Shown: positions 11,529-22,067 of the stretch, piece after piece | Numbering within the stretch: position 1 is the stretch's first letter | Layout: each line of letters begins with the position of its first letter | NCBI GenBank assembly: GCA_027068365.1 | Contig: JAMOTQ010000014.1 | Location: forward strand, 1 to 24,000 | Length of the DNA: 24,000 nt | Origin: Methanocaldococcus sp. | Lineage (GTDB): Archaea > AGJL01 > Methanococci > Methanococcales > Methanocaldococcaceae | Direction of reading: 5' to 3' | The notes under the pieces: generated by a model | The model's input: only the letters and a program-made list of their open reading frames with translations | The model's database searches: none | Told to the model about the DNA's origin: nothing | Program-made: the position numbers and the translations under genes

Positions 11529-12719
11529 TTAAAACTTTTTAAACATATTCTCAATGATTCTTGCATACGCAGGTCTTGTTATAAATATTCCTATTAAAAC
11601 CCCTGCTATTGTAGTTATTGCAAATCCTTTTAACATTCCAACCCCAAGCACAAATAAAGGCAACATAGCGGCAATAGATGTTGATGCTGAGGCAAATATT
11701 ATAAAGAAAGCTCTTTTAATACTTGCTCTTATTTTTCCAGCTCCTTTCTTTAAAGCTTCATCAGTTATAACTATTTGGTTATCCACTCCCGTCCCAACTG
11801 CGGCAATAATCCCAGCTATTGAAGGTAAATCCAATTTCCAACTTATTAAAGATGCGAAGCCCAATATAATGATAATTTCTGATAAGCAGGTTATTAAAAT
11901 TGGTAGTGCTATCTTTGGCTGTTTGTATCTTACACTGACAATTATTCCAACAGCAACAAATGCCAATAATAAAGCAATGGCAGTTCCTTTTAAGAATTCC
12001 TTACCAAATTCTGGGGATACAGTTGAGATATATTCGATATTCAGTTTTACAGGTAAAGCTCCGGATTTTAGAGCTGAATAAATAGCCATTGCCTCATCAA
12101 TTTCCTCTTTTGTTGGAGGGTAGCCACCAACGGTAATAACCTGTTTTGGATGAGGTCTTCCATCTGCTAAGTCAGGGGATAAGACAGGAGCTGAGATTAG
12201 CTTTCCATCCATATACAACTCAACTTTATGATATGCCTTTCCCTTAGCAACTTCGGCAAATTTCTTAGCTCCTTCTAATGTTAATTCAAAAGGAACACCA
12301 TAAGCCCAGTTATCTCCTTGTGGAATCTTTGTTGGGGGTTCAACAGATTTAACATCTTTTCCAGTATAAGCGGTTATATTATCAATTTTTGCTTCAAAGA
12401 CCCCCTGTTCCATTAGAACTTTTTTTATTCTATCAACGTCGCAACTCTTAGGAATCATAACAACAATTTCATCATTTCCTCTTGGATAAACGGTTATATC
12501 GCTTAAACCATTTGCATTTAACCTCTTTTCAATAATATCAACAGTTAATTGTATCTCCTCATCAGTCATTGGTCGCTCTGCTTTTAAGACAATAACTGTC
12601 CCTCCACTTAAATCAATCCCATAATCAAGCCCTTTAAATACGATTAAAAGCACAGATAAAGTAACGAATAATATTAATAGTAGTATTCTTTTATCTTTTA
12701 GTAATTTTGATATTTCCAT
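11529..12719 (-). CDS. secD: Protein-export membrane protein SecD
   Basis: 396 aa. N-terminal TM helix followed by GIDLSGGT, a periplasmic-type domain, and a C-terminal six-helix region with VGTGVDNQIVITDE. GGTGA lies 5 nt upstream. Confidence 0.82.
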   Translation of the reverse strand: MEISKLLKDKRILLLILFVTLSVLLIVFKGLDYGIDLSGGTVIVLKAERPMTDEEIQLTVDIIEKRLNANGLSDITVYPRGNDEIVVMIPKSCDVDRIKKVLMEQGVFEAKIDNITAYTGKDVKSVEPPTKIPQGDNWAYGVPFELTLEGAKKFAEVAKGKAYHKVELYMDGKLISAPVLSPDLADGRPHPKQVITVGGYPPTKEEIDEAMAIYSALKSGALPVKLNIEYISTVSPEFGKEFLKGTAIALLLAFVAVGIIVSVRYKQPKIALPILITCLSEIIIILGFASLISWKLDLPSIAGIIAAVGTGVDNQIVITDEALKKGAGKIRASIKRAFFIIFASASTSIAAMLPLFVLGVGMLKGFAITTIAGVLIGIFITRPAYARIIENMFKKF

Positions 12720-12780
12720 CTATCTCACCTAATCCATAAGTTTAGCAAATTTTAACAAAAATCCTTTAAAATTTACAAAG

Positions 12781-12832
12781 ATTTGTGGTGATTAATATGG
12801 ATTTTGATATAACTATTATTGGCTATATTGCC
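12781..12832 (+). pseudogene. Duplicated 5' fragment (SD, ATG and 12 codons) of the SemiSWEET gene
   Basis: 52 nt that are near-identical to 12911-12962 (two single-nucleotide indels and three substitutions by eye). The ATG at 12797 opens a 24-codon frame that runs into the hairpin element and stops at TGA 12869-12871. Confidence 0.7.
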
Positions 12833-12910
12833 ATAGGGCTTCGCCCTATTGGGATACCCAGGATGCGTTGATTAGCTAAAAGCTAATCAACGTCTCTTAG
12901 TAAAATCTAT
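12833..12910 (+). repeat. GC-rich palindromic hairpin element (head plus 12-bp-stem hairpin plus TAGTAAAATCT tail)
   Basis: ATAGGGC-TTCG-GCCCTAT (12833-12849), TGGGATACC, CGTTGATTAGCT-AAA-AGCTAATCAACG (12866-12892), tail TCTCTTAGTAAAATCTAT. Same family as 17768-17820, 21890-21970 and 4488-4520. Confidence 0.75.
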
Positions 12911-12926
12911 ATTTGGGTGATTAATA

Positions 12927-13208
12927 ATGGATTTTGATATAACTATTATTGGCTACATTGCTGGAACTTTAACAACGTTTGCATCTCTCCCTCAATTAAT
13001 AAAGTCATTGAAAGAGAAGGATATGAGCAACATATCATTAGCTTTTGTTATAACATTCACAACTGGACTAACACTCTGGCTAATATATGGGATATTAAAG
13101 AATGATTACCCCATAATAGTATTTAATATTTTGTCTTTAATGTTTTGGATTCCAATAACTTATTTAAAGGTTAGGGAGGAGATTGTAAGGAGGAAGAAAA
13201 TTTTATGA
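12927..13208 (+). CDS. SemiSWEET / PQ-loop (MtN3 family) three-helix membrane transporter
   Basis: 93 aa with three hydrophobic helices and an LPQ motif in the first helix (TTFASLPQLIKSL). GGTGA lies 6 nt upstream. Confidence 0.72.
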   Translation: MDFDITIIGYIAGTLTTFASLPQLIKSLKEKDMSNISLAFVITFTTGLTLWLIYGILKNDYPIIVFNILSLMFWIPITYLKVREEIVRRKKIL

Positions 13209-13217
13209 GATGAGAAA

Positions 13218-13976
13218 ATGAAATGGGATGAGATTGGGAAAAAGATTGCAAGAGAGATTGAAAAAGAAATTTTACCATATTTTGGAAGAAAGGATAAATC
13301 TTATGTTGTTGGAAAATCACCAAGTGGTGATGAAACAGAAATTTTTGACAAAATAAGCGAAGATATTGCTTTAAAACATTTAAAGCTATTTAATGTTAAT
13401 ATTGTGAGTGAGGAGTTGGGAATTATTGATAATGGTAGTGAATGGACTGTTGTTATAGACCCTGTTGATGGTTCATTTAATTTTATAAATGGGATTCCAT
13501 TTTTTGCATTTTGCTTTGGAGTATTTAAAAATAACAAGCCACATTATGGATTAACCTATGAATTTTTAACTAAAAGGTTTTTTGAAGCATACTCTGGGAG
13601 AGGGGCTTATTTAAATGGAAAAAAGATTAAAGTTAAGGATTTTAATCCAAAAGATATAACTATAAGCTATTATCCAGATAAAAAAATAGATTTGGAAAAA
13701 TTGAGGAATAGGGTTAAAAGAGTGAGGATATTTGGAGCTTTTGGTTTAGAGATGTGTTATGTAGCTAAGGGGGTTTTAGATGCTGTTTTTGATGTGAGAC
13801 CAAAAGTTAGGGCTGTTGATATCTCTTCCTCCTATATCATTTGCAGGGAGGCAGGGGCTTTAATAACAGACAATAATGGAGAAGAGCTGAAATTTGAGCT
13901 GAATGCAACAGACAGGTTAAAGATTGTTGTAGCAAATAGTAAGGAGATGTTAAATTTAATTTTAGACCTTCTATAA
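13218..13976 (+). CDS. suhB: Inositol monophosphatase / fructose-1,6-bisphosphatase family protein
   Basis: 252 aa with motifs VSEE and WTVVIDPVDGSFNF. Resembles the bifunctional MJ0109 enzyme from memory. Confidence 0.88.
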   Translation: MKWDEIGKKIAREIEKEILPYFGRKDKSYVVGKSPSGDETEIFDKISEDIALKHLKLFNVNIVSEELGIIDNGSEWTVVIDPVDGSFNFINGIPFFAFCFGVFKNNKPHYGLTYEFLTKRFFEAYSGRGAYLNGKKIKVKDFNPKDITISYYPDKKIDLEKLRNRVKRVRIFGAFGLEMCYVAKGVLDAVFDVRPKVRAVDISSSYIICREAGALITDNNGEELKFELNATDRLKIVVANSKEMLNLILDLL

Positions 13977-14020
13977 GTTTTTAAAGATTTTATCGCAAAT
14001 AATATCAAAAATTAAAAAAA

Positions 14021-15355
14021 TTAAATGCTCTCAACTTTTATAGTGTTTGTTTTCTTTTGACCTATTGGATGACCTAATGTTATTAAATAAATCCCCTTTC
14101 CAATTTCTTTTTTAGCTATACTTTTAGATGTGTTAATTATACTCTCCACATCATTAAACTCCTTCATTAAACAGCTTTCAACTCCCCAGACCAACCTCAA
14201 CCTTTTTAAAGTTTTTATATTTGGTGTTGGAGCAATTATTTTACTACCTATTCTTAATTTTGATATCAATTTTGCAGTTCTTCCAGAGTAGGTTGGAGTT
14301 ATAACCAACTTGACATTTAATTTTTTATATAACTCATAAACGGCATAAACTAAACCCTCATCAATACTCTTAACTCCTAAACAAACTTTGTCTCCAAACT
14401 CCTCATAATGTTTATCTGCTACCTCTGCAACTTTATTTAAAACTTTTATTGCCTCTATTGGATATTTTCCAATAGTTGTTTCGTTGGAGAGCATTAAACA
14501 GTCAGTTCCATCGTATATGGCATTGGCTATATCGGTAATCTCAGCCCTCGTTGGATATGGATTATTTACCATAGAGTCCAATATTTGCGTGGCTGTTATT
14601 GACAAAATTCCATATTTATTGGCTGTTCTCAATATATTCTTTTGTTCAATTGGAATGTTTTCAATTGGAATCTCAACACCCAAATCTCCCCTCGCCACCA
14701 TCACCCCATCACTTTCTCTTGCTATCTCTTTTATATTTTTTAATCCTTCTTTTGTCTCTATTTTTGATATAACTTCACAATCTCCATTATATTCATTTAT
14801 AATGTCCTTCAACTCTTTAACATCCTCTTTATTCCTAACAAAAGATAGGGCAATATATTCAAAATCATTATTTACAGCAAATTTTATATTTTTTAAGTCA
14901 GTTTCATCAATTATTGGAAGTTCTATCTTTGTATCTGGGAGATTAACTCCCATCCCCTCTTTAACTTCTCCACCAACCTCTACAACGGCTATAATCTTGT
15001 CTCCCTTATTTTTTACAACCCTCAGCTTAATCTTTCCATCATTGATTAAAATAAAATGCCCCTCTTCAATTGTGCCTATGTTATAATTAAACTTTATATC
15101 CTCTCCAATAACAACCTTGTCCCCCACCTTCAATATTTTATTTTTTAATTTAACCTCTTTAATCCTTATTTTTATTCCCTTCAAATCCATAACTTTGGCA
15201 ATGTTATTTTTTTCCAAAATATTTAAAAATCTCTTGCAATAATCTGTTGTAGCGTGTGACATGTTAAACCTAACTCCATCTATTAAATTTATTGCTTTAT
15301 CTAATTTATCCTCTAATGAGGGACCTAATGTAACTAAAATTTTAGTTTTTCTCAT
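14021..15355 (-). CDS. pyk: Pyruvate kinase
   Basis: MRKTKILVTLGPS, NMSHA, ISKIET and MVARGDLGVEIP motifs. Start at ATG 15355, overlapping the upstream stop within TAATG. The track start at 15367 is a non-ATG extension. Confidence 0.92.
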   Translation of the reverse strand: MRKTKILVTLGPSLEDKLDKAINLIDGVRFNMSHATTDYCKRFLNILEKNNIAKVMDLKGIKIRIKEVKLKNKILKVGDKVVIGEDIKFNYNIGTIEEGHFILINDGKIKLRVVKNKGDKIIAVVEVGGEVKEGMGVNLPDTKIELPIIDETDLKNIKFAVNNDFEYIALSFVRNKEDVKELKDIINEYNGDCEVISKIETKEGLKNIKEIARESDGVMVARGDLGVEIPIENIPIEQKNILRTANKYGILSITATQILDSMVNNPYPTRAEITDIANAIYDGTDCLMLSNETTIGKYPIEAIKVLNKVAEVADKHYEEFGDKVCLGVKSIDEGLVYAVYELYKKLNVKLVITPTYSGRTAKLISKLRIGSKIIAPTPNIKTLKRLRLVWGVESCLMKEFNDVESIINTSKSIAKKEIGKGIYLITLGHPIGQKKTNTIKVESI

Positions 15356-16938
15356 TATTCCCACCAAAACTCATTATAAAATAAATCAAAATCTTGGCTG
15401 TATTTTTTTCCTATTCTTAAAGCAATCTCTGCCTTAGCCAACTCCCTACCAAAATAAGCTGAGTGGTCTAACTTTTTTATTAAATTTAATCTTATCGCGG
15501 TCTCATAAATTTCTTTTGGTTTTTTCCCCCTAATAATTAAAGTTGGTTCTCTCCTCTTATTGAAGTATATAACTACAATCTCTTTATTTTTTCTATCAAT
15601 CTCTATTTTAAAACTACCCTCATCCAATATTTGCCTTTCATTCTCCTTAGCTTTAATAACTGGAACTTTATAATTGTTGAATGTTATTTCCTCTTCAAAT
15701 CTCTTATCCTTATAATTTATTAAGTTAAATCCCACATCTTTTGGTAAAGAATTCCTTTTTTTAGCTAAAAACATCATCTTTGAGGCAATTTTTAACTCTT
15801 TTATTGAAAATTTGCATTTTGCACTTGCTTCTGGCGTAAATAATATATTGGCGTTGATTTCAGACGCAATGGCAGTTAATAGGGCATTAACTCCATTACT
15901 GTCAGCATCAAAAAGCTCTGTAACATTTCCAACACCAAAAAATAATGGAATTTTATTCTTTTTTTTAAATTCCCTACATGCAATAACACTCTCTATAAAA
16001 TTACATCCAGCATTATTTATTGGCTCCAAAATTGGGTCAGCAACTATTTTTTCAATTCCAGCATCAATCAATTTTTTTATATTTTCCTCCAATGACTTTA
16101 TTTTTCCTTCAATTGTTTCTGGAACATAGTTTGTTTTATAGTTCGTTGGCAAAACAACAACCGCTGTGTCAGAATCTTTTAAATAAGGTATTAACTCATC
16201 CATATTTCCAGCATCAACGCTTAAAATCATATCCGCCCCTAAATTTATCGCCGTAATCAACTCTTTTGTGTTTAAAGTATCTACGCTGATTGGATTGTCA
16301 GTTAAATCCCTCGCTATTTTTAACATCTCTTTAATTTTGTCTGCATTATTTTCATTACTAACCATTCCCAAATCAATCATATCAGCCCCGCTCTCTAAGT
16401 AGTATATTATTTTTTCCTCCAACTCCTTTTCTTTTAGCCATGGAGTATGAACTATCTCCCCTAAAACCCTCATTGGAAACCTATCCCCAACCTTTAACTT
16501 GCCTATTTTTATATCTCCCTCTCCCAACTCCTGCTCCTCTGCTTTTTTAATCTCCTCCTCACATTTCTTTTTAATAATCTCCAATAGTTGCAAATCAGCA
16601 TACTCTTTGGTTGATAATTTTATTTTGTCCAAATTTTCAATTAATATTGGAATATCTGATGCCTCTCTTGTAGATTTGAAGCATTTTATTCCTGTTTCCT
16701 CTTCAACTTTCTTTAAATCATGTCTTATCAATCCAGTCACCAAAACAAAATCGTAAATGTCCTTTAATTTTTTTCCAAGTTTTTCCTCTAATTTTCTAAT
16801 CTCTCTAATTATTAAATTTGGTGTTAAAAAAGCCGCCACTGATATGTTTGCTACATGCACATCAACAAAATTGTATTTTTCCACGGCTTTTTTAACTTTC
16901 TTTTCAGCTAATTTTCCAGTTATTATTAAAATTTTCAT
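15355..16938 (-). CDS. Two-domain protein with a dihydropteroate-synthase-like pterin-binding domain
   Basis: 527 aa from ATG 16938, with GGTGA 5 nt upstream. The central region (GADMIDLG...ISVDT...GADMILSVD) looks like a DHPS/pterin-binding TIM barrel. MJ0107 from memory. Exact activity not asserted. Confidence 0.7.
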   Translation of the reverse strand: MKILIITGKLAEKKVKKAVEKYNFVDVHVANISVAAFLTPNLIIREIRKLEEKLGKKLKDIYDFVLVTGLIRHDLKKVEEETGIKCFKSTREASDIPILIENLDKIKLSTKEYADLQLLEIIKKKCEEEIKKAEEQELGEGDIKIGKLKVGDRFPMRVLGEIVHTPWLKEKELEEKIIYYLESGADMIDLGMVSNENNADKIKEMLKIARDLTDNPISVDTLNTKELITAINLGADMILSVDAGNMDELIPYLKDSDTAVVVLPTNYKTNYVPETIEGKIKSLEENIKKLIDAGIEKIVADPILEPINNAGCNFIESVIACREFKKKNKIPLFFGVGNVTELFDADSNGVNALLTAIASEINANILFTPEASAKCKFSIKELKIASKMMFLAKKRNSLPKDVGFNLINYKDKRFEEEITFNNYKVPVIKAKENERQILDEGSFKIEIDRKNKEIVVIYFNKRREPTLIIRGKKPKEIYETAIRLNLIKKLDHSAYFGRELAKAEIALRIGKKYSQDFDLFYNEFWWE

Positions 16939-17061
16939 AATTTTCACCATGAGGTTTTACGGTGACAATTAAGATTATATAAATGATTCAATAAAATTTA
17001 TCTATTAAATTTATTAAAATTAAAATTTAAAATTAGTTTAGCCGGGTTTTTGGTGAGGAGT

Positions 17062-17766
17062 ATGAAGTTCGTAGAAAAGACAAAAATAAACTTTGAAAAT
17101 CCCATAGTTATTGAAGCGTTTCCTGGAACTGGATTGGTTGGTAGTATTGCTGGATTTCAAATAATAAAGGAATTAAAATTGAAATATTATGGATACTTTG
17201 AAATTGAAGGGATTCCTCCACTTACGACAATAGAAAAAGGAATTCCCTATCCACCAGTTAGGGCTTATGCAAATGAGGATATAGTTATTTTATTTTCAGA
17301 TGTAATAATTCCACCAATTAAAATAAATGAATTAGCTGAAATTATAGTTAAAACATTTTCAAATAAAAACCCCAAACTGTTCATCTCCCTTGGAGGGGTT
17401 ATGGCTGGAAAATCAGAAAAAGTATTTGGTATAGCCAATAAGGAAGATTTAATAGATAATTTAAAAAATTATGTTGAAATATTTAATTTTGGAGTTGTTG
17501 GGGGCATGGGAGGGAATTTATTAATAAAATGCCAAGATAATGGGCTTGATGCCATTGGCTTGTTGGCTGAAACCGTTGGAATTAGACCAGACCCAAGAGG
17601 AGGGGCTAACCTATTAGAGGTTTTAAATAAGATGTTCAATTTGAATGTAAATATTGAAAATTTACTTAAAGAGGCAGAAGCCATTGAAAATAAACTTAAA
17701 GAATTAGCAGAACAGCATTTAAAAATGATGTCAAAGAGTAGAAAGGAATATCCAATGTATATTTAA
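17062..17766 (+). CDS. PAC2-family (proteasome assembly chaperone-like) protein
   Basis: 234 aa from ATG 17062, preceded by GGTGAGGAG. The EAFPGTGLVGSIAG N-terminal motif is typical of the family. MJ0106 from memory. Confidence 0.7.
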   Translation: MKFVEKTKINFENPIVIEAFPGTGLVGSIAGFQIIKELKLKYYGYFEIEGIPPLTTIEKGIPYPPVRAYANEDIVILFSDVIIPPIKINELAEIIVKTFSNKNPKLFISLGGVMAGKSEKVFGIANKEDLIDNLKNYVEIFNFGVVGGMGGNLLIKCQDNGLDAIGLLAETVGIRPDPRGGANLLEVLNKMFNLNVNIENLLKEAEAIENKLKELAEQHLKMMSKSRKEYPMYI

Positions 17767-17767
17767 C

Positions 17768-17820
17768 CCATGGGGCTTCGCCTATTGGGATGCATTACGC
17801 TCAACCTTTTAGTAAAATCT
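17768..17820 (+). repeat. Short or degenerate member of the GC-rich hairpin element family
   Basis: CCATGGGGCTTCGCC-TATTGGGATGC...TTTTAGTAAAATCT shares its head and tail with 12831-12908. Starts 2 nt after the PAC2-family stop. Confidence 0.65.
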
Positions 17821-17910
17821 TGACCAAAATATGTATTTACATCCTAACGGAAGTAAATGCCTCTTAATTATAATTCGATACTGTTAAAACTTTCAAATTT
17901 TGGTGGTATT

Positions 17911-18255
17911 ATGAGAGTTTATGGATTGTTTGGAATTAACGAGAAGGCAATAAATGATTTCATAGAAAATCATGTCAAAACATTTACTATAATCAATGCA
18001 TTGAACTTAGAGACGGTTAAAAATCTAAAAGAGGGGGATTTAGTTTTTATAACATCAACACTTAGGGAGGATTTAAGAAATGGAACTGAGGGGGTTTTAG
18101 GAAGAGTTTTAAATGTTAAATTATCTCCTCAACTAATAAATGGATTTGAAGAAAAGGAAGTAATAGCTGGGAGGGTTCAATTTGAGATGTTGGGCTTTGC
18201 TAAATGTGTTAATGTTGAAACAATCCATGTTGAGGTAGCATTTAGAATGTATTAA
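17911..18255 (+). CDS. Conserved hypothetical protein
   Basis: 114 aa from ATG 17911, with GGTGG 5 nt upstream. The track ORF from 17857 has no SD. I recognise no domain. MJ0105 position from memory. Confidence 0.6.
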   Translation: MRVYGLFGINEKAINDFIENHVKTFTIINALNLETVKNLKEGDLVFITSTLREDLRNGTEGVLGRVLNVKLSPQLINGFEEKEVIAGRVQFEMLGFAKCVNVETIHVEVAFRMY

Positions 18256-20378
18256 TTCTTTATTTTAGCTAAATCTTTACTTATATCTTTTTTATCGTTA
18301 TTTTGAGTAGTTTCTTCATTTCTTTTGTTAGTTCCATTATCAATGTTATTATTATTTTCATTATCTCTTCTACTCTCACATTTTTTACTCTCACATTTTT
18401 GTTTATCATCATCAATTTTACTATCTTTTTTATTGCTTTTATAACTCTCTTCAACTGATTTAGCCCACTGTATCATCTCATTATAGACCTTATCCTGCTC
18501 CAATAAGTTTTTATTGCCTATCAGTATAAGCTTCCTTTTAGCCCTTGTTATTGCAACATTCAACCTTCTCAAATCTTTTAAAAATCCAAAGTTTTTTGTT
18601 CTAACAAATGAAATTACTATTGCCTCGTTCTCCCTACCTTGGAACCCATCAACAGTATTAACCTCCACATCTATATTATGCTCTTCAAACAACCTCCTCA
18701 AATATCTAACTTGGGCATCATAAGGAGTTATAACGTTCGTTGGTATCTTATACTTTACAAGTTTTTTAACAACATCTAAAACCTTCTCTGCCTCCTCTAT
18801 ATTATAATAAGATGGAGATTCCTTATCTCTCCTCTCAACTCCATCAACATTTATAAACTGGACTGGAATTTCATTTATAATATCTCTATCAATCTCATCA
18901 ATCTCCTCCTCTTTAACTAAATCCAACAAGGTTATATTTTTAACGCTCTCATCTGCCTTCAACTTGTTATCATAAAACATCCTATTTGGGAATTCCATAA
19001 TTTTTTCATTCATCCTATATTGAATTTCCAAGATTGAAGAGAACTCAGGGTATTTTTTAATTAACCTCTCAAACAATGTCTTTTTTAACTCTTCATTTTC
19101 ACTCAATACTGTTGGAGGTAGTTGCTTATGGTCTCCTGCCATAATTAACTTTTTTCCTTTAACAATTGGGATTAAGCAGGATGGTTCCATCGCTTGACTT
19201 CCTTCATCTATAACAACCACATCAAATTCCCAGCCCTTTAAAATCTCTGAGCCAGCCATTGAGTTCGTTGATACAATAACATCCGCCTCTGCTAAAATTT
19301 CATTGGTAATTTTTTCAACTATCTCATCCAAATTTTTTATAATTTTACTAATCCTCCTATTTCTTATAATCCACTCTGCCATGCTTATGATTTTTTCCTT
19401 TGGAACTCCCCTATAATCCTTCTTTTTCTTAGCCACTTTTAGAATTTGCTCGTCACTCATTCCCCTCCTCCATCTTGGGGATGGCTTTAAAAATTTATCC
19501 CTCTGCTCCTTAATCTCTTTAATTTTTTCTTTTAGGGATAAAATTTCTTGATACTTCTCATGGTTTTCAATTAAATATGGTAGAGAATGCTGTATTAAAT
19601 CCTTTGAAATCCTTGTTGGATGTCCAACCCTAACAACCTTTAAATCAGGATATTTTTTAATTAGATACTCTAATATGTTATCAGCCGCTATGTTTGAGTC
19701 AGCAGTTGCTAAAACCTTATGCTTGTTAAATCTAACCTCCTGAACAATAACCTCAGTCAAAGTCCTCGTTTTTCCAGTTCCCGGAGGACCATGGATGAGA
19801 TATAAATCTTTACTTAAAACTGCCTTTTTAACAGCCAATTTTTGGGATTCATTCAAATGTTTATCATAAAACTCTAATTCAATATCTTCCCTCAACGGCT
19901 TTTCTGGATGTTCAATGCCCAATATTATGTAAGCTAATTTATCCCTTTTTCTTGCAAATTCCTTTAACGCCTCTTTCATTCTTTTAAATGTTATGTCATT
20001 AACATACAAATCAACCCTCACTCTCTCCTTATAAACCCATTTTGGAACATCAACATCAAAGGCAACATCTATAAAGTTCTTTCCTACATAAATGACATTT
20101 GCATATAAATCACTCTGTAATGGGTTTTCTTTGCTGATTAAAACAACATCTCCCGGTGAAATTTCCGTTTTAAATGGCTTCTTTCTCCCAAATCTTACAA
20201 TCGTGCATCCTAAGCTCTCTCCCAAGAACTTTCCCTTTAAATTTAAAATTGCCCTTCCAACATTTTCCCTCTTTTTTCCCAACCTAATTATCTCATTTTT
20301 GTGAAAATCCATCTCACATTTTCTCTCAATCTCAATCAAATCCCTAAATTTTTTTACGTATAAATCCACTAAATTCAA
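18252..20378 (-). CDS. Superfamily-1 helicase, Upf1/Dna2/IGHMBP2-like
   Basis: 708 aa with GPPGTGKT (motif I), VIDEGSQ (II), VDGFQGRE and NVAITRAK (V/VI). Apparent TTG start at 20378 with GGTGA 4 nt upstream and no nearby ATG. MJ0104 from memory. Confidence 0.88.
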   Translation of the reverse strand: MNLVDLYVKKFRDLIEIERKCEMDFHKNEIIRLGKKRENVGRAILNLKGKFLGESLGCTIVRFGRKKPFKTEISPGDVVLISKENPLQSDLYANVIYVGKNFIDVAFDVDVPKWVYKERVRVDLYVNDITFKRMKEALKEFARKRDKLAYIILGIEHPEKPLREDIELEFYDKHLNESQKLAVKKAVLSKDLYLIHGPPGTGKTRTLTEVIVQEVRFNKHKVLATADSNIAADNILEYLIKKYPDLKVVRVGHPTRISKDLIQHSLPYLIENHEKYQEILSLKEKIKEIKEQRDKFLKPSPRWRRGMSDEQILKVAKKKKDYRGVPKEKIISMAEWIIRNRRISKIIKNLDEIVEKITNEILAEADVIVSTNSMAGSEILKGWEFDVVVIDEGSQAMEPSCLIPIVKGKKLIMAGDHKQLPPTVLSENEELKKTLFERLIKKYPEFSSILEIQYRMNEKIMEFPNRMFYDNKLKADESVKNITLLDLVKEEEIDEIDRDIINEIPVQFINVDGVERRDKESPSYYNIEEAEKVLDVVKKLVKYKIPTNVITPYDAQVRYLRRLFEEHNIDVEVNTVDGFQGRENEAIVISFVRTKNFGFLKDLRRLNVAITRAKRKLILIGNKNLLEQDKVYNEMIQWAKSVEESYKSNKKDSKIDDDKQKCESKKCESRRDNENNNNIDNGTNKRNEETTQNNDKKDISKDLAKIKN

Positions 20379-21695: not shown

Positions 21696-21889
21696 AGTTC
21701 CACGCAATATTTAAATATTCACATTAATTAGAAAAATTAGGAACAATTTAAACACTCTTACTGTTTAATTTGTTTGCCAATTATAAAAGAAAAATTTTGC
21801 AGTTAATTTTTTTTGTAGTTAGTTATTGCTATAATAATTAAAAATTAAAAAAAGCTCAAAATATCTGGTGCAAGGTCTGAGATTTAAAG

Positions 21890-21970
21890 CATAGGGCTTC
21901 GCCCTATTGCTATACCTCCAAAGGATGCATTGCCTCGCTAACGCTCGGCAATGCCTCTTCTAATTAGCTA
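21890..21970 (+). repeat. GC-rich hairpin element next to the tRNA-Leu 3' end
   Basis: ATAGGGC-TTCG-GCCCTAT (21890-21906), TGCTATACC, GCATTGCC-TCGCTAACGCTC-GGCAATGC (21926-21953), CTCTTCTAATTAGCTAT. Flanked by AAATATCTGGTGC at 21858-21870 and 21973-21985. Confidence 0.72.
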
Positions 21971-21979
21971 TCAAATATC

Positions 21980-22067
21980 TGGTGCGGGGGACGGGATTTG
22001 AACCCGCGAACCCCTACGGGACCAGACCCTCAATCTGGCGCCTTTGGCCAGGCTTGGCGACCCCCGC
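21980..22067 (-). tRNA. tRNA-Leu (anticodon GAG), CCA encoded
   Basis: The reverse complement reads GCGGGGG..GCCAAGCCTGGCCAAAGGCG-CCAGA-TTGAGGG-TCTGG-long variable arm-GCGGGTTCAAATCCCGT-CCCCCGC-A-CCA. A TTTATAAATA TATA box lies about 20 nt upstream on the same strand (22084-22093). Confidence 0.9.

Follow-up and report, generated by a model that had tools for sequence, protein, structure and literature searches.

In the 24,000 nt stretch of Methanocaldococcus DNA analyzed here (referred to as the window), the start of a SemiSWEET-like gene is present twice, on either side of a short insert rich in hairpins. This arrangement raises the question of how a sequence could enter a reading frame and leave the gene intact, and whether the additional gene start is a scar of that event or a regulatory device. 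The two direct copies are 51 nt long (ATTTGTGGTGATTAATATGGATTTTGATATAACTATTATTGGCTATATTGC in the upstream copy) and contain the ribosome-binding site, the ATG and the first 12 codons of the gene (Table 1). The downstream copy differs from the upstream copy by the loss of a T (TTTGTGG to TTTGGG), the gain of an A (TTAAT-ATG to TTAATAATG) and a T-to-C substitution (TAT to TAC), exactly the three differences listed in a preliminary description of the locus. The repeat search found GGTGATTAATA at both 12787 and 12916, and a 35-mer at 12797-12831 that recurs at 12927-12961 with one mismatch (97% identity); this core was matched twice in the window and not once in 100 shuffles. The preliminary description had extended the repeat to 12832 and 12962. 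The repeat is real, but C12832 and T12962 differ, and the duplication stops one base earlier. The copies bracket the insert as had been described; its length, however, is 79 nt and not 78 nt, or 80 nt if the ambiguous C12831, which can be assigned to the target or to the element, is counted.

The insert contains the 12-bp stem recognized earlier, which the repeat search recovered as a perfect inverted repeat with a 3 nt loop, and a second hairpin, ATAGGGC-TTC-GCCCTAT. The fold energy of 12770-12970 is -57.8 kcal/mol (z = -5.1 versus shuffles), and a search of 12400-13400 against Rfam matched no family at E <= 10. The upstream copy opens the 24-codon frame that had been pointed out before, here called the decoy ORF; codons 1-12 are derived from the gene and the last 12 from the element, and the TGA stop (12869-12871) lies inside the 5′ arm of the long stem. 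Downstream of the decoy start and the hairpins, the 93-aa ORF is whole, in agreement with the claim that the gene was left intact, and matches PQ-loop (1.5e-10) and MtN3_slv (2.9e-8). The neighboring genes are a SecD/F-like gene on the other strand and a gene of the inositol-monophosphatase family.

Table 1. Features of the SemiSWEET locus, in window positions.
Feature	Position	Strand	Remarks
Intergenic spacer between the divergent SecD/F-like and SemiSWEET genes	12747-12774		two TATA-like boxes, AAATTTTAAC (12747-12756) and TTTAAAATTT (12765-12774)
Upstream (decoy) target copy	12781-12831	+	begins 6 nt 5′ of the ribosome-binding site, ends within codon 12
Decoy ribosome-binding site GGTGAT	12787-12792	+	identical in relatives
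Decoy ORF, 24 codons, MDFDITIIGYIA + IGLRPIGIPRMR	12797-12871	+	no Pfam match
Inserted two-module hairpin element, 79 nt	12832-12910	+	missing at 13 orthologous loci; family copies elsewhere
Head module H, CCATAGGGC-TTC-GCCCTATTGGGATACCCA	12831-12860	+	hairpin 12833-12849; small TGGG-ATA-CCCA hairpin 12850-12860
Right module G: GGATGC, stem 12866-12877/12881-12892, TCTCTTA	12861-12899	+	conserved flanks
AT-rich tail GTAAAATCTAT	12900-12910	+	common to subfamily copies in other genomes (AAAATCAT)
Downstream (working) target copy	12911-12961	+	bears all three derived differences
Ribosome-binding site GGTGAT of the intact gene	12916-12921	+	sequence
Intact 93-aa PQ-loop / MtN3_slv (SemiSWEET-like) gene	12927-13208	+	ORF call and Pfam

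We searched for orthologues across 30 related genomes and found the SemiSWEET gene throughout the genus. The two halves of the query gave matches that overlapped on the subject in the closest relatives, indicating that these relatives carry a single copy, and the rebuilt empty site was matched in one piece by G007, G009, G010, G011 and G015. The preliminary description had looked to related genomes for an empty site and had held that a duplication without the element, or the element without the duplication, would uncouple the two. All 13 orthologous loci that were read have a single gene start and lack the element, and neither of the uncoupled states occurs among them. These comparisons support the view that the element is an insertion and that the target was duplicated along with it. 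A single event both inserted the element and duplicated the target, and thereby rescued the gene: the 51 bp that begin 6 nt upstream of the ribosome-binding site and end in codon 12 were duplicated, the head of the element was joined to the inner end of the upstream copy, and the tail is followed by a complete new gene start, which leaves the gene intact downstream and a decoy running into the element upstream.

The sequences of the two copies also bear on their origin. In a three-way alignment, the upstream copy has the state of the relatives at 3/3 differing sites. GATTTTGATATAACTATTATTGGC is common to both copies, and each relative differs at 2-4 of these positions. Both copies thus share lineage-specific bases, unlike all relatives, which argues that the duplicate was made from the lineage's own DNA and was not imported. 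A working gene start that was brought in with the element by recombination, or a duplication and an insertion that happened separately, might be invoked as G007 too has the additional A that precedes the working copy's ATG. However, the two copies are closer to each other than either is to any relative, the changes across 20 loci show no one-sided excess of foreign-looking ones, long insert-free tandem duplications are rare, and the intermediate state was seen in no relative; we consider import or two separate events very improbable.

A 27-mer spanning the junction was absent from the other reference genomes and present in one metagenome contig, Ga0256836_1002613 (L163), which is 99.24% identical to window 12272-18865 over 6.6 kb and carries the insertion and the three differences in identical form. 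As this contig is independent, the structure is not an assembly artefact. The contig also places a close relative of the strain in a public metagenome. Judged from these sequences, the insertion postdates the split from G007 (~90% identity) and predates the divergence of the two strains that carry it, which are 0.76% apart. The empty state of some relatives could stem from later precise loss between the direct repeats. In G001 (L030), the same spacer upstream of the SemiSWEET ortholog is ~110 bases longer; the extra, unrelated sequence separates the SecD/F-like gene from the conserved promoter boxes and may be a different insertion. Taken alone, the SemiSWEET locus is an ordinary, recent, strain-lineage-specific insertion of a repeat family.

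Copies of the element in this genome were listed by BLAST. The first 36 nt has ~25 further occurrences, the head motif CCATAGGG-N3-8-CCCTAT is found in 28 copies, and the element regions number 73. The head motif occurs in 1-37 copies in 13/16 genomes of the genus, with 30 in G009 and 37 in G015, and in 0-2 copies in other genera of the order, and the reversed control pattern gives 0-1; the family appears to be restricted to the genus. Its members have a two-part architecture, with H or an AT-rich hairpin (T) as the left module and G, P, Q or R as the right module, and this order is kept in a single orientation at 22/26 loci. Within module G, GGATGC and CTCTTA are constant, and the stem varies by copy and subfamily while always remaining complementary. 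Full-length relatives of the SemiSWEET copy are located at the starts of other genes in G015 (93%) and G010 (88%); their GTTGATTAGCT stem is the same apart from compensated changes, and the duplication on either side of each comprises the ribosome-binding site, the ATG and the first codons. The SemiSWEET copy is of the H + G type and has unrelated ends without terminal inverted repeats, and H...H′ doublets represent only some members of the family.

The repeat family itself is already published. The element probably belongs to the MJRE palindromic repeats of M. jannaschii. Suyama, Lathe and Bork reportedly introduced MJRE1-3 in FEBS Lett in 2005 as palindromic repetitive elements of Methanocaldococcus jannaschii. 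This family likewise consists of short palindromic repeats with many copies in Methanocaldococcus genomes. In the excerpts of two citing papers (PMC2229807, PMC2996958), the MJRE are palindromic repeats with coding potential, and only in-frame coding insertions are treated. As portrayed in these excerpts, MJRE1-3 resemble the present family in being short GC-rich palindromes that are mainly intergenic and in some cases lie within proteins, but long flank duplications, a two-module architecture or polarity are not mentioned there. A full-text literature search, which had the founding 2005 MJRE paper outside its scope, retrieved no account of long, variable, polar, gene-end-anchored duplications for this repeat family.

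The duplication at the SemiSWEET gene is not peculiar to that gene. In this genome, flank duplications of 13-78 bp directly adjoin the element at 26 non-CRISPR loci, and for 24 of the 26 a relative matches the rebuilt empty site, a few of these relatives being filled at the same site. The earlier suggestion to look genome-wide for such copies was thus rewarded with dozens of them. Among low-copy direct-repeat pairs (at least 20 bp, 35-250 bp apart), 28/58 enclose an element, with elements making up <1% of the DNA; for pairs of at least 25 bp, the share is about three quarters. Insert-free tandem duplications with a period of 25-90 number only about five. The duplication is therefore tied to the element. 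The 48 head motifs of G009 and G015 yielded 31 clean cases with duplications of 21-70 bp, and long duplications flank ~24/30 head-type copies in G009. In the pooled set of 55 loci from three genomes, the duplications span 13-78 bp with a median of 36 and show no peak at the 30-bp length of the CRISPR repeat. Low-score element regions devoid of a long duplication are mostly pieces of larger clusters with wrongly drawn boundaries.

The two junctions differ in precision. In 20/31 cases from G009 and G015, the upstream copy reaches exactly to the head's first base, and in five more it overlaps the head by 1-4 nt, whereas on the tail side CTCTTA is followed by 1-24 nt of variable AT-rich sequence. 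Derived changes are distributed evenly, with 40 in left and 45 in right copies, or 39 in working and 30 in decoy copies; an error-prone or imported copy was dropped as an explanation owing to this lack of asymmetry. The 20 nt beyond the outer edge of the duplication, in which a decayed continuation was sought, were no more alike than shuffled pairs (p = 0.10). No cleavage motif was found at the duplication edges, only AT-richness at the outer edge, and BLAST of three tail-plus-junction segments against the genome, in search of a donor flank, returned no second copy.

The orientation of the elements relative to genes is biased. With simple ORF calls in place of annotation, the gene that had been duplicated into was located on the tail side at 34 loci and on the head side at 9 (p = 1.7e-4, a value that is too optimistic as three related genomes share insertions). 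Manual reading of this genome gave 16 on the tail side versus 2 or 3 on the head side. The outer edge of the duplication is also anchored. At gene 3′ ends, its position relative to the stop codon's end is between -7 and +5 nt in 17/26 cases, and often it coincides with that end; at gene 5′ ends it is located 1-21 nt before the ATG, at or just 5′ of the ribosome-binding site. The SemiSWEET locus obeys both rules, with the outer edge 6 nt before GGTGAT, the head adjoining the decoy and the tail adjoining the intact gene. These results show that a long variable duplication, an exact head junction, a tail pointing toward the intact gene and an anchored outer edge are the normal behavior of the family.

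Anchoring and polarity might instead be what selection has left in a compact genome after random insertion with duplications of any length. Insertions within genes would survive only where the duplication rebuilds the gene end, intergenic spacers are short, and the even numbers of derived changes in left and right copies are those expected of neutral scars. However, a distribution falling with length predicts mostly short duplications in spacers, in conflict with the predominance of long ones in G009, and selection would permit an outer edge anywhere outside the gene, not the observed pile-up at or just inside the stop codon. Avoidance of terminators was ruled out as the cause of the polarity because oligo-T runs are equal on the two strands of head-type elements, and so it does not help this explanation either. 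We regard survivorship as an unlikely source of the pattern.

Several other copies illustrate the range of the family. In the window, a second H + G copy (21859-21985; element 21872-21972) lies beside tRNA-Leu, and its 13-bp duplication, AAATATCTGGTGC, includes the 3′ end of the tRNA. The head of this copy is preceded by 18 nt, AAGGTCTGAGATTTAAAG, that resemble the 3′ end of a CRISPR repeat, so the 5′ limit of the copied unit is not always the head; the sequence suggests that this copy may have been derived from an element lodged at an array end. In G016, eight loci (L046-L049, L052, L053, L057 and L063) have a copy of the same H + G subfamily exactly between two CRISPR repeats, at the array end and in the place of a spacer. 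Two ~380-bp elements of this genome (L002, C39:8957-9447; L012, C29:4452-4891) begin with H + G, after which come an AT-rich stretch that resembles a promoter and a structured segment rich in GC. The flanking duplications, of 52 bp for L002 and 31 bp for L012, each include a gene start, and neither element has an Rfam match; L002 is located directly upstream of cas1, and related genomes likewise have an element adjoining cas1. At one gene start (MIKELFRK / MMKELFRK), the head is joined at the same position in three species while the right modules differ (C128:336-357 in this genome, L132 in G009 and L044 in G015), which reflects either a module swap by recombination at a fixed site or repeated hits. 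At C161:13639-13805 of this genome, a perfect 36-bp duplication begins 3′ of the start codon, and a new ribosome-binding site (AGGTG) and an in-frame ATG come from the element tail, so that the protein would be two residues shorter.

One possibility is that the decoy ORF and the hairpins were retained because, as a structured leader or an upstream ORF, they regulate the SemiSWEET gene. Both TATA-like boxes of the 78-bp divergent spacer are kept in relatives and lie upstream of the duplication, so that the duplicated part holds none in front of the downstream gene copy. The promoter that had been proposed near 12765 corresponds to TTTAAAATTT, which is present but is only one of the two boxes, and may serve the SecD/F gene on the other strand. 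As the working copy has no TATA-like boxes of its own, transcription of the SemiSWEET gene probably starts at the old promoter and crosses the decoy ORF and hairpins, provided that the boxes act as promoters as their sequences suggest. A regulatory role would agree with the unchanged ribosome-binding site and ATG of the decoy, with the stable predicted structure, with the location of all three differences in the working copy, two of them around its ribosome-binding site, and with the sharing of the arrangement by the two strains. On the other hand, the arrangement is absent at 13/13 related loci and hence is not a conserved device, and the same geometry is found at dozens of unrelated genes, at 3′ ends and beside tRNAs, which points to a by-product of insertion. 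Selection for regulation therefore appears improbable to us, and a conserved regulatory upstream ORF or leader was rejected on the absence from the orthologous loci and from Rfam.

Which enzyme, if any, moves the element was approached with a survey of four Pfam families over 17 genomes of the genus. Reverse transcriptase RVT_1 (PF00078) was found in 0/17 genomes and was matched in the control genomes, and on this ground a SINE-like retroelement spreading by target-primed reverse transcription was rejected. Y1_Tnp (PF01797) is present in 3/17 genomes and absent from this one. DDE_Tnp_1 (PF01609) is present in 7/17 and missing from G016, G001, G012 and G006, which have 15-25 head copies each. 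Neither transposase is co-distributed with the repeats. Cas1 was found in 15/17 genomes, namely all 13 with elements and 2 of the 4 without. An autonomous partner was also discounted, as the element-bounded ~1-kb units in G015 hold hisA-like and ferredoxin-like genes and no mobility enzymes. One of these (L118, G015:C1:131300-133100) has the hisA-like gene between two inverted 155-nt composite elements that are 97% complementary, and the other (L119, G015:C1:145200-147000) has the ferredoxin-like ORF between two identical 228-nt direct copies; the layout is that of a composite transposon without a transposase. A transposase or integrase beyond the four Pfam families that has gone unrecognized is possible.

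The main rival to a copy-in by the host is therefore an enzyme acting in trans, a transposase or integrase of the DDE type known from IS1634/IS1549 or Cas1, that makes far-apart cuts at variable distance, followed by gap filling, with the repeats as non-autonomous passengers. According to PMC2266710, IS1549 and IS1634 insertions are flanked by direct repeats 8-514 bp long, and members of the IS1634 family are frequent in Euryarchaeota. Integration by Cas1, which is encoded in every element-bearing genome, duplicates the whole CRISPR repeat; element copies sit exactly between two CRISPR repeats in several arrays, and the exact head junction would also suit an enzyme. Against this stand the element-rich genomes without DDE_Tnp_1, the two element-free genomes with Cas1, the lack of an enzyme gene in the element-bounded units of G015 and the inexact tail junction, and a Cas1 ruler would give ~30 bp rather than 13-78. 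We thus see a staggered-cut enzyme as possible but rather doubtful.

Because no matching enzyme was found, we favor a polar copy-in, a model consistent with the precision of the head junction, the looseness of the tail junction and the varying duplication length. In this model, host replication or repair enzymes would carry out the insertion. A growing 3′ end would depart from the chromosome at a gene boundary, copy a free element from tail to head and run off at the head; re-priming 13-78 nt behind the departure point would then cause that stretch to be copied twice. Replication slippage, put forward in the preliminary description, does not suffice, as by itself it leaves the exact head junction, the fixed polarity and the anchoring at gene ends unexplained. 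No intermediate, donor molecule or enzyme for copy-in was seen in the genomes analyzed. For the SemiSWEET locus, we consider it likely that a genus-specific, non-coding H + G repeat was inserted 36 nt inside the reading frame, that the 51 bp were duplicated in the same event and that a polar copy-in by the host accounts for both. As a general rule for the family, it is only a tentative proposal, which may well prove wrong, that the repeats spread without a transposase, and that a polar host process at the edge of translated regions inserts the repeat, re-copies 13-78 bp and thereby rebuilds the gene end.

Each of the known systems shares some features with this family and differs in others. 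The duplication had been described as far longer than that of a classical transposase; it is indeed long, but it has a precedent in IS1634/IS1549, whose direct repeats are likewise long and variable and for which no mechanistic model was proposed (PMC2266710). The IS1634/IS1549 elements are 1.5-2 kb in length and encode their own transposase, whereas the present element is 80 nt long, non-coding and mostly without terminal inverted repeats, and a DDE transposase occurs neither within it nor consistently in the genomes that harbor it. The bacterial REP/BIME and REPIN sequences are similar in being mosaics of short hairpin modules between genes, whose stems keep pairing while the sequence changes. 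They are accompanied by the RAYT (Y1) transposase and make no target duplication; here, Y1 (HUH) transposases are absent from this genome and 14/17 overall, and long duplications accompany most copies. MITEs are also small, non-coding, multi-copy elements with target duplications and empty sites in relatives, but they end in inverted repeats, have a parent insertion sequence and duplicate a short target of constant length, none of which applies to the SemiSWEET copy; no parent with the same ends was found, as the element-bounded units hold housekeeping genes.

In spacer integration by Cas1-Cas2 and in casposons, a staggered attack duplicates tens of bp, in the former case the repeat, and members of this family occupy the position of a spacer at array ends. 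The duplication is 14-15 bp for casposons and of repeat length for CRISPR, in both cases set by a ruler, unlike the variable duplications at the non-CRISPR sites here. Integrative elements at tRNA or protein genes similarly leave the interrupted gene whole and a displaced partial copy behind; they bring their own gene end and use a site-specific integrase at one site, whereas in this family the copy comes from the local target and many sites are used.

The classification of prokaryotic mobile elements relies on their enzyme and on a target duplication that is short and constant in length, and this family differs on each point. If the proposed mechanism is true, it represents an insertion route that repairs the gene it enters, and would account for the spread of selfish repeats to the starts and ends of genes and the ends of tRNAs in a genome of 1.4 Mb that has hardly any DNA to spare. 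The insertions yield decoy starts, new C-termini and structured leaders as raw material. If the transposase-free reading is also true, compact hyperthermophile genomes would have a mode of mobile-DNA insertion of their own that spares genes, and the repeat-insert-repeat units that it generates could seed or extend CRISPR-like arrays.
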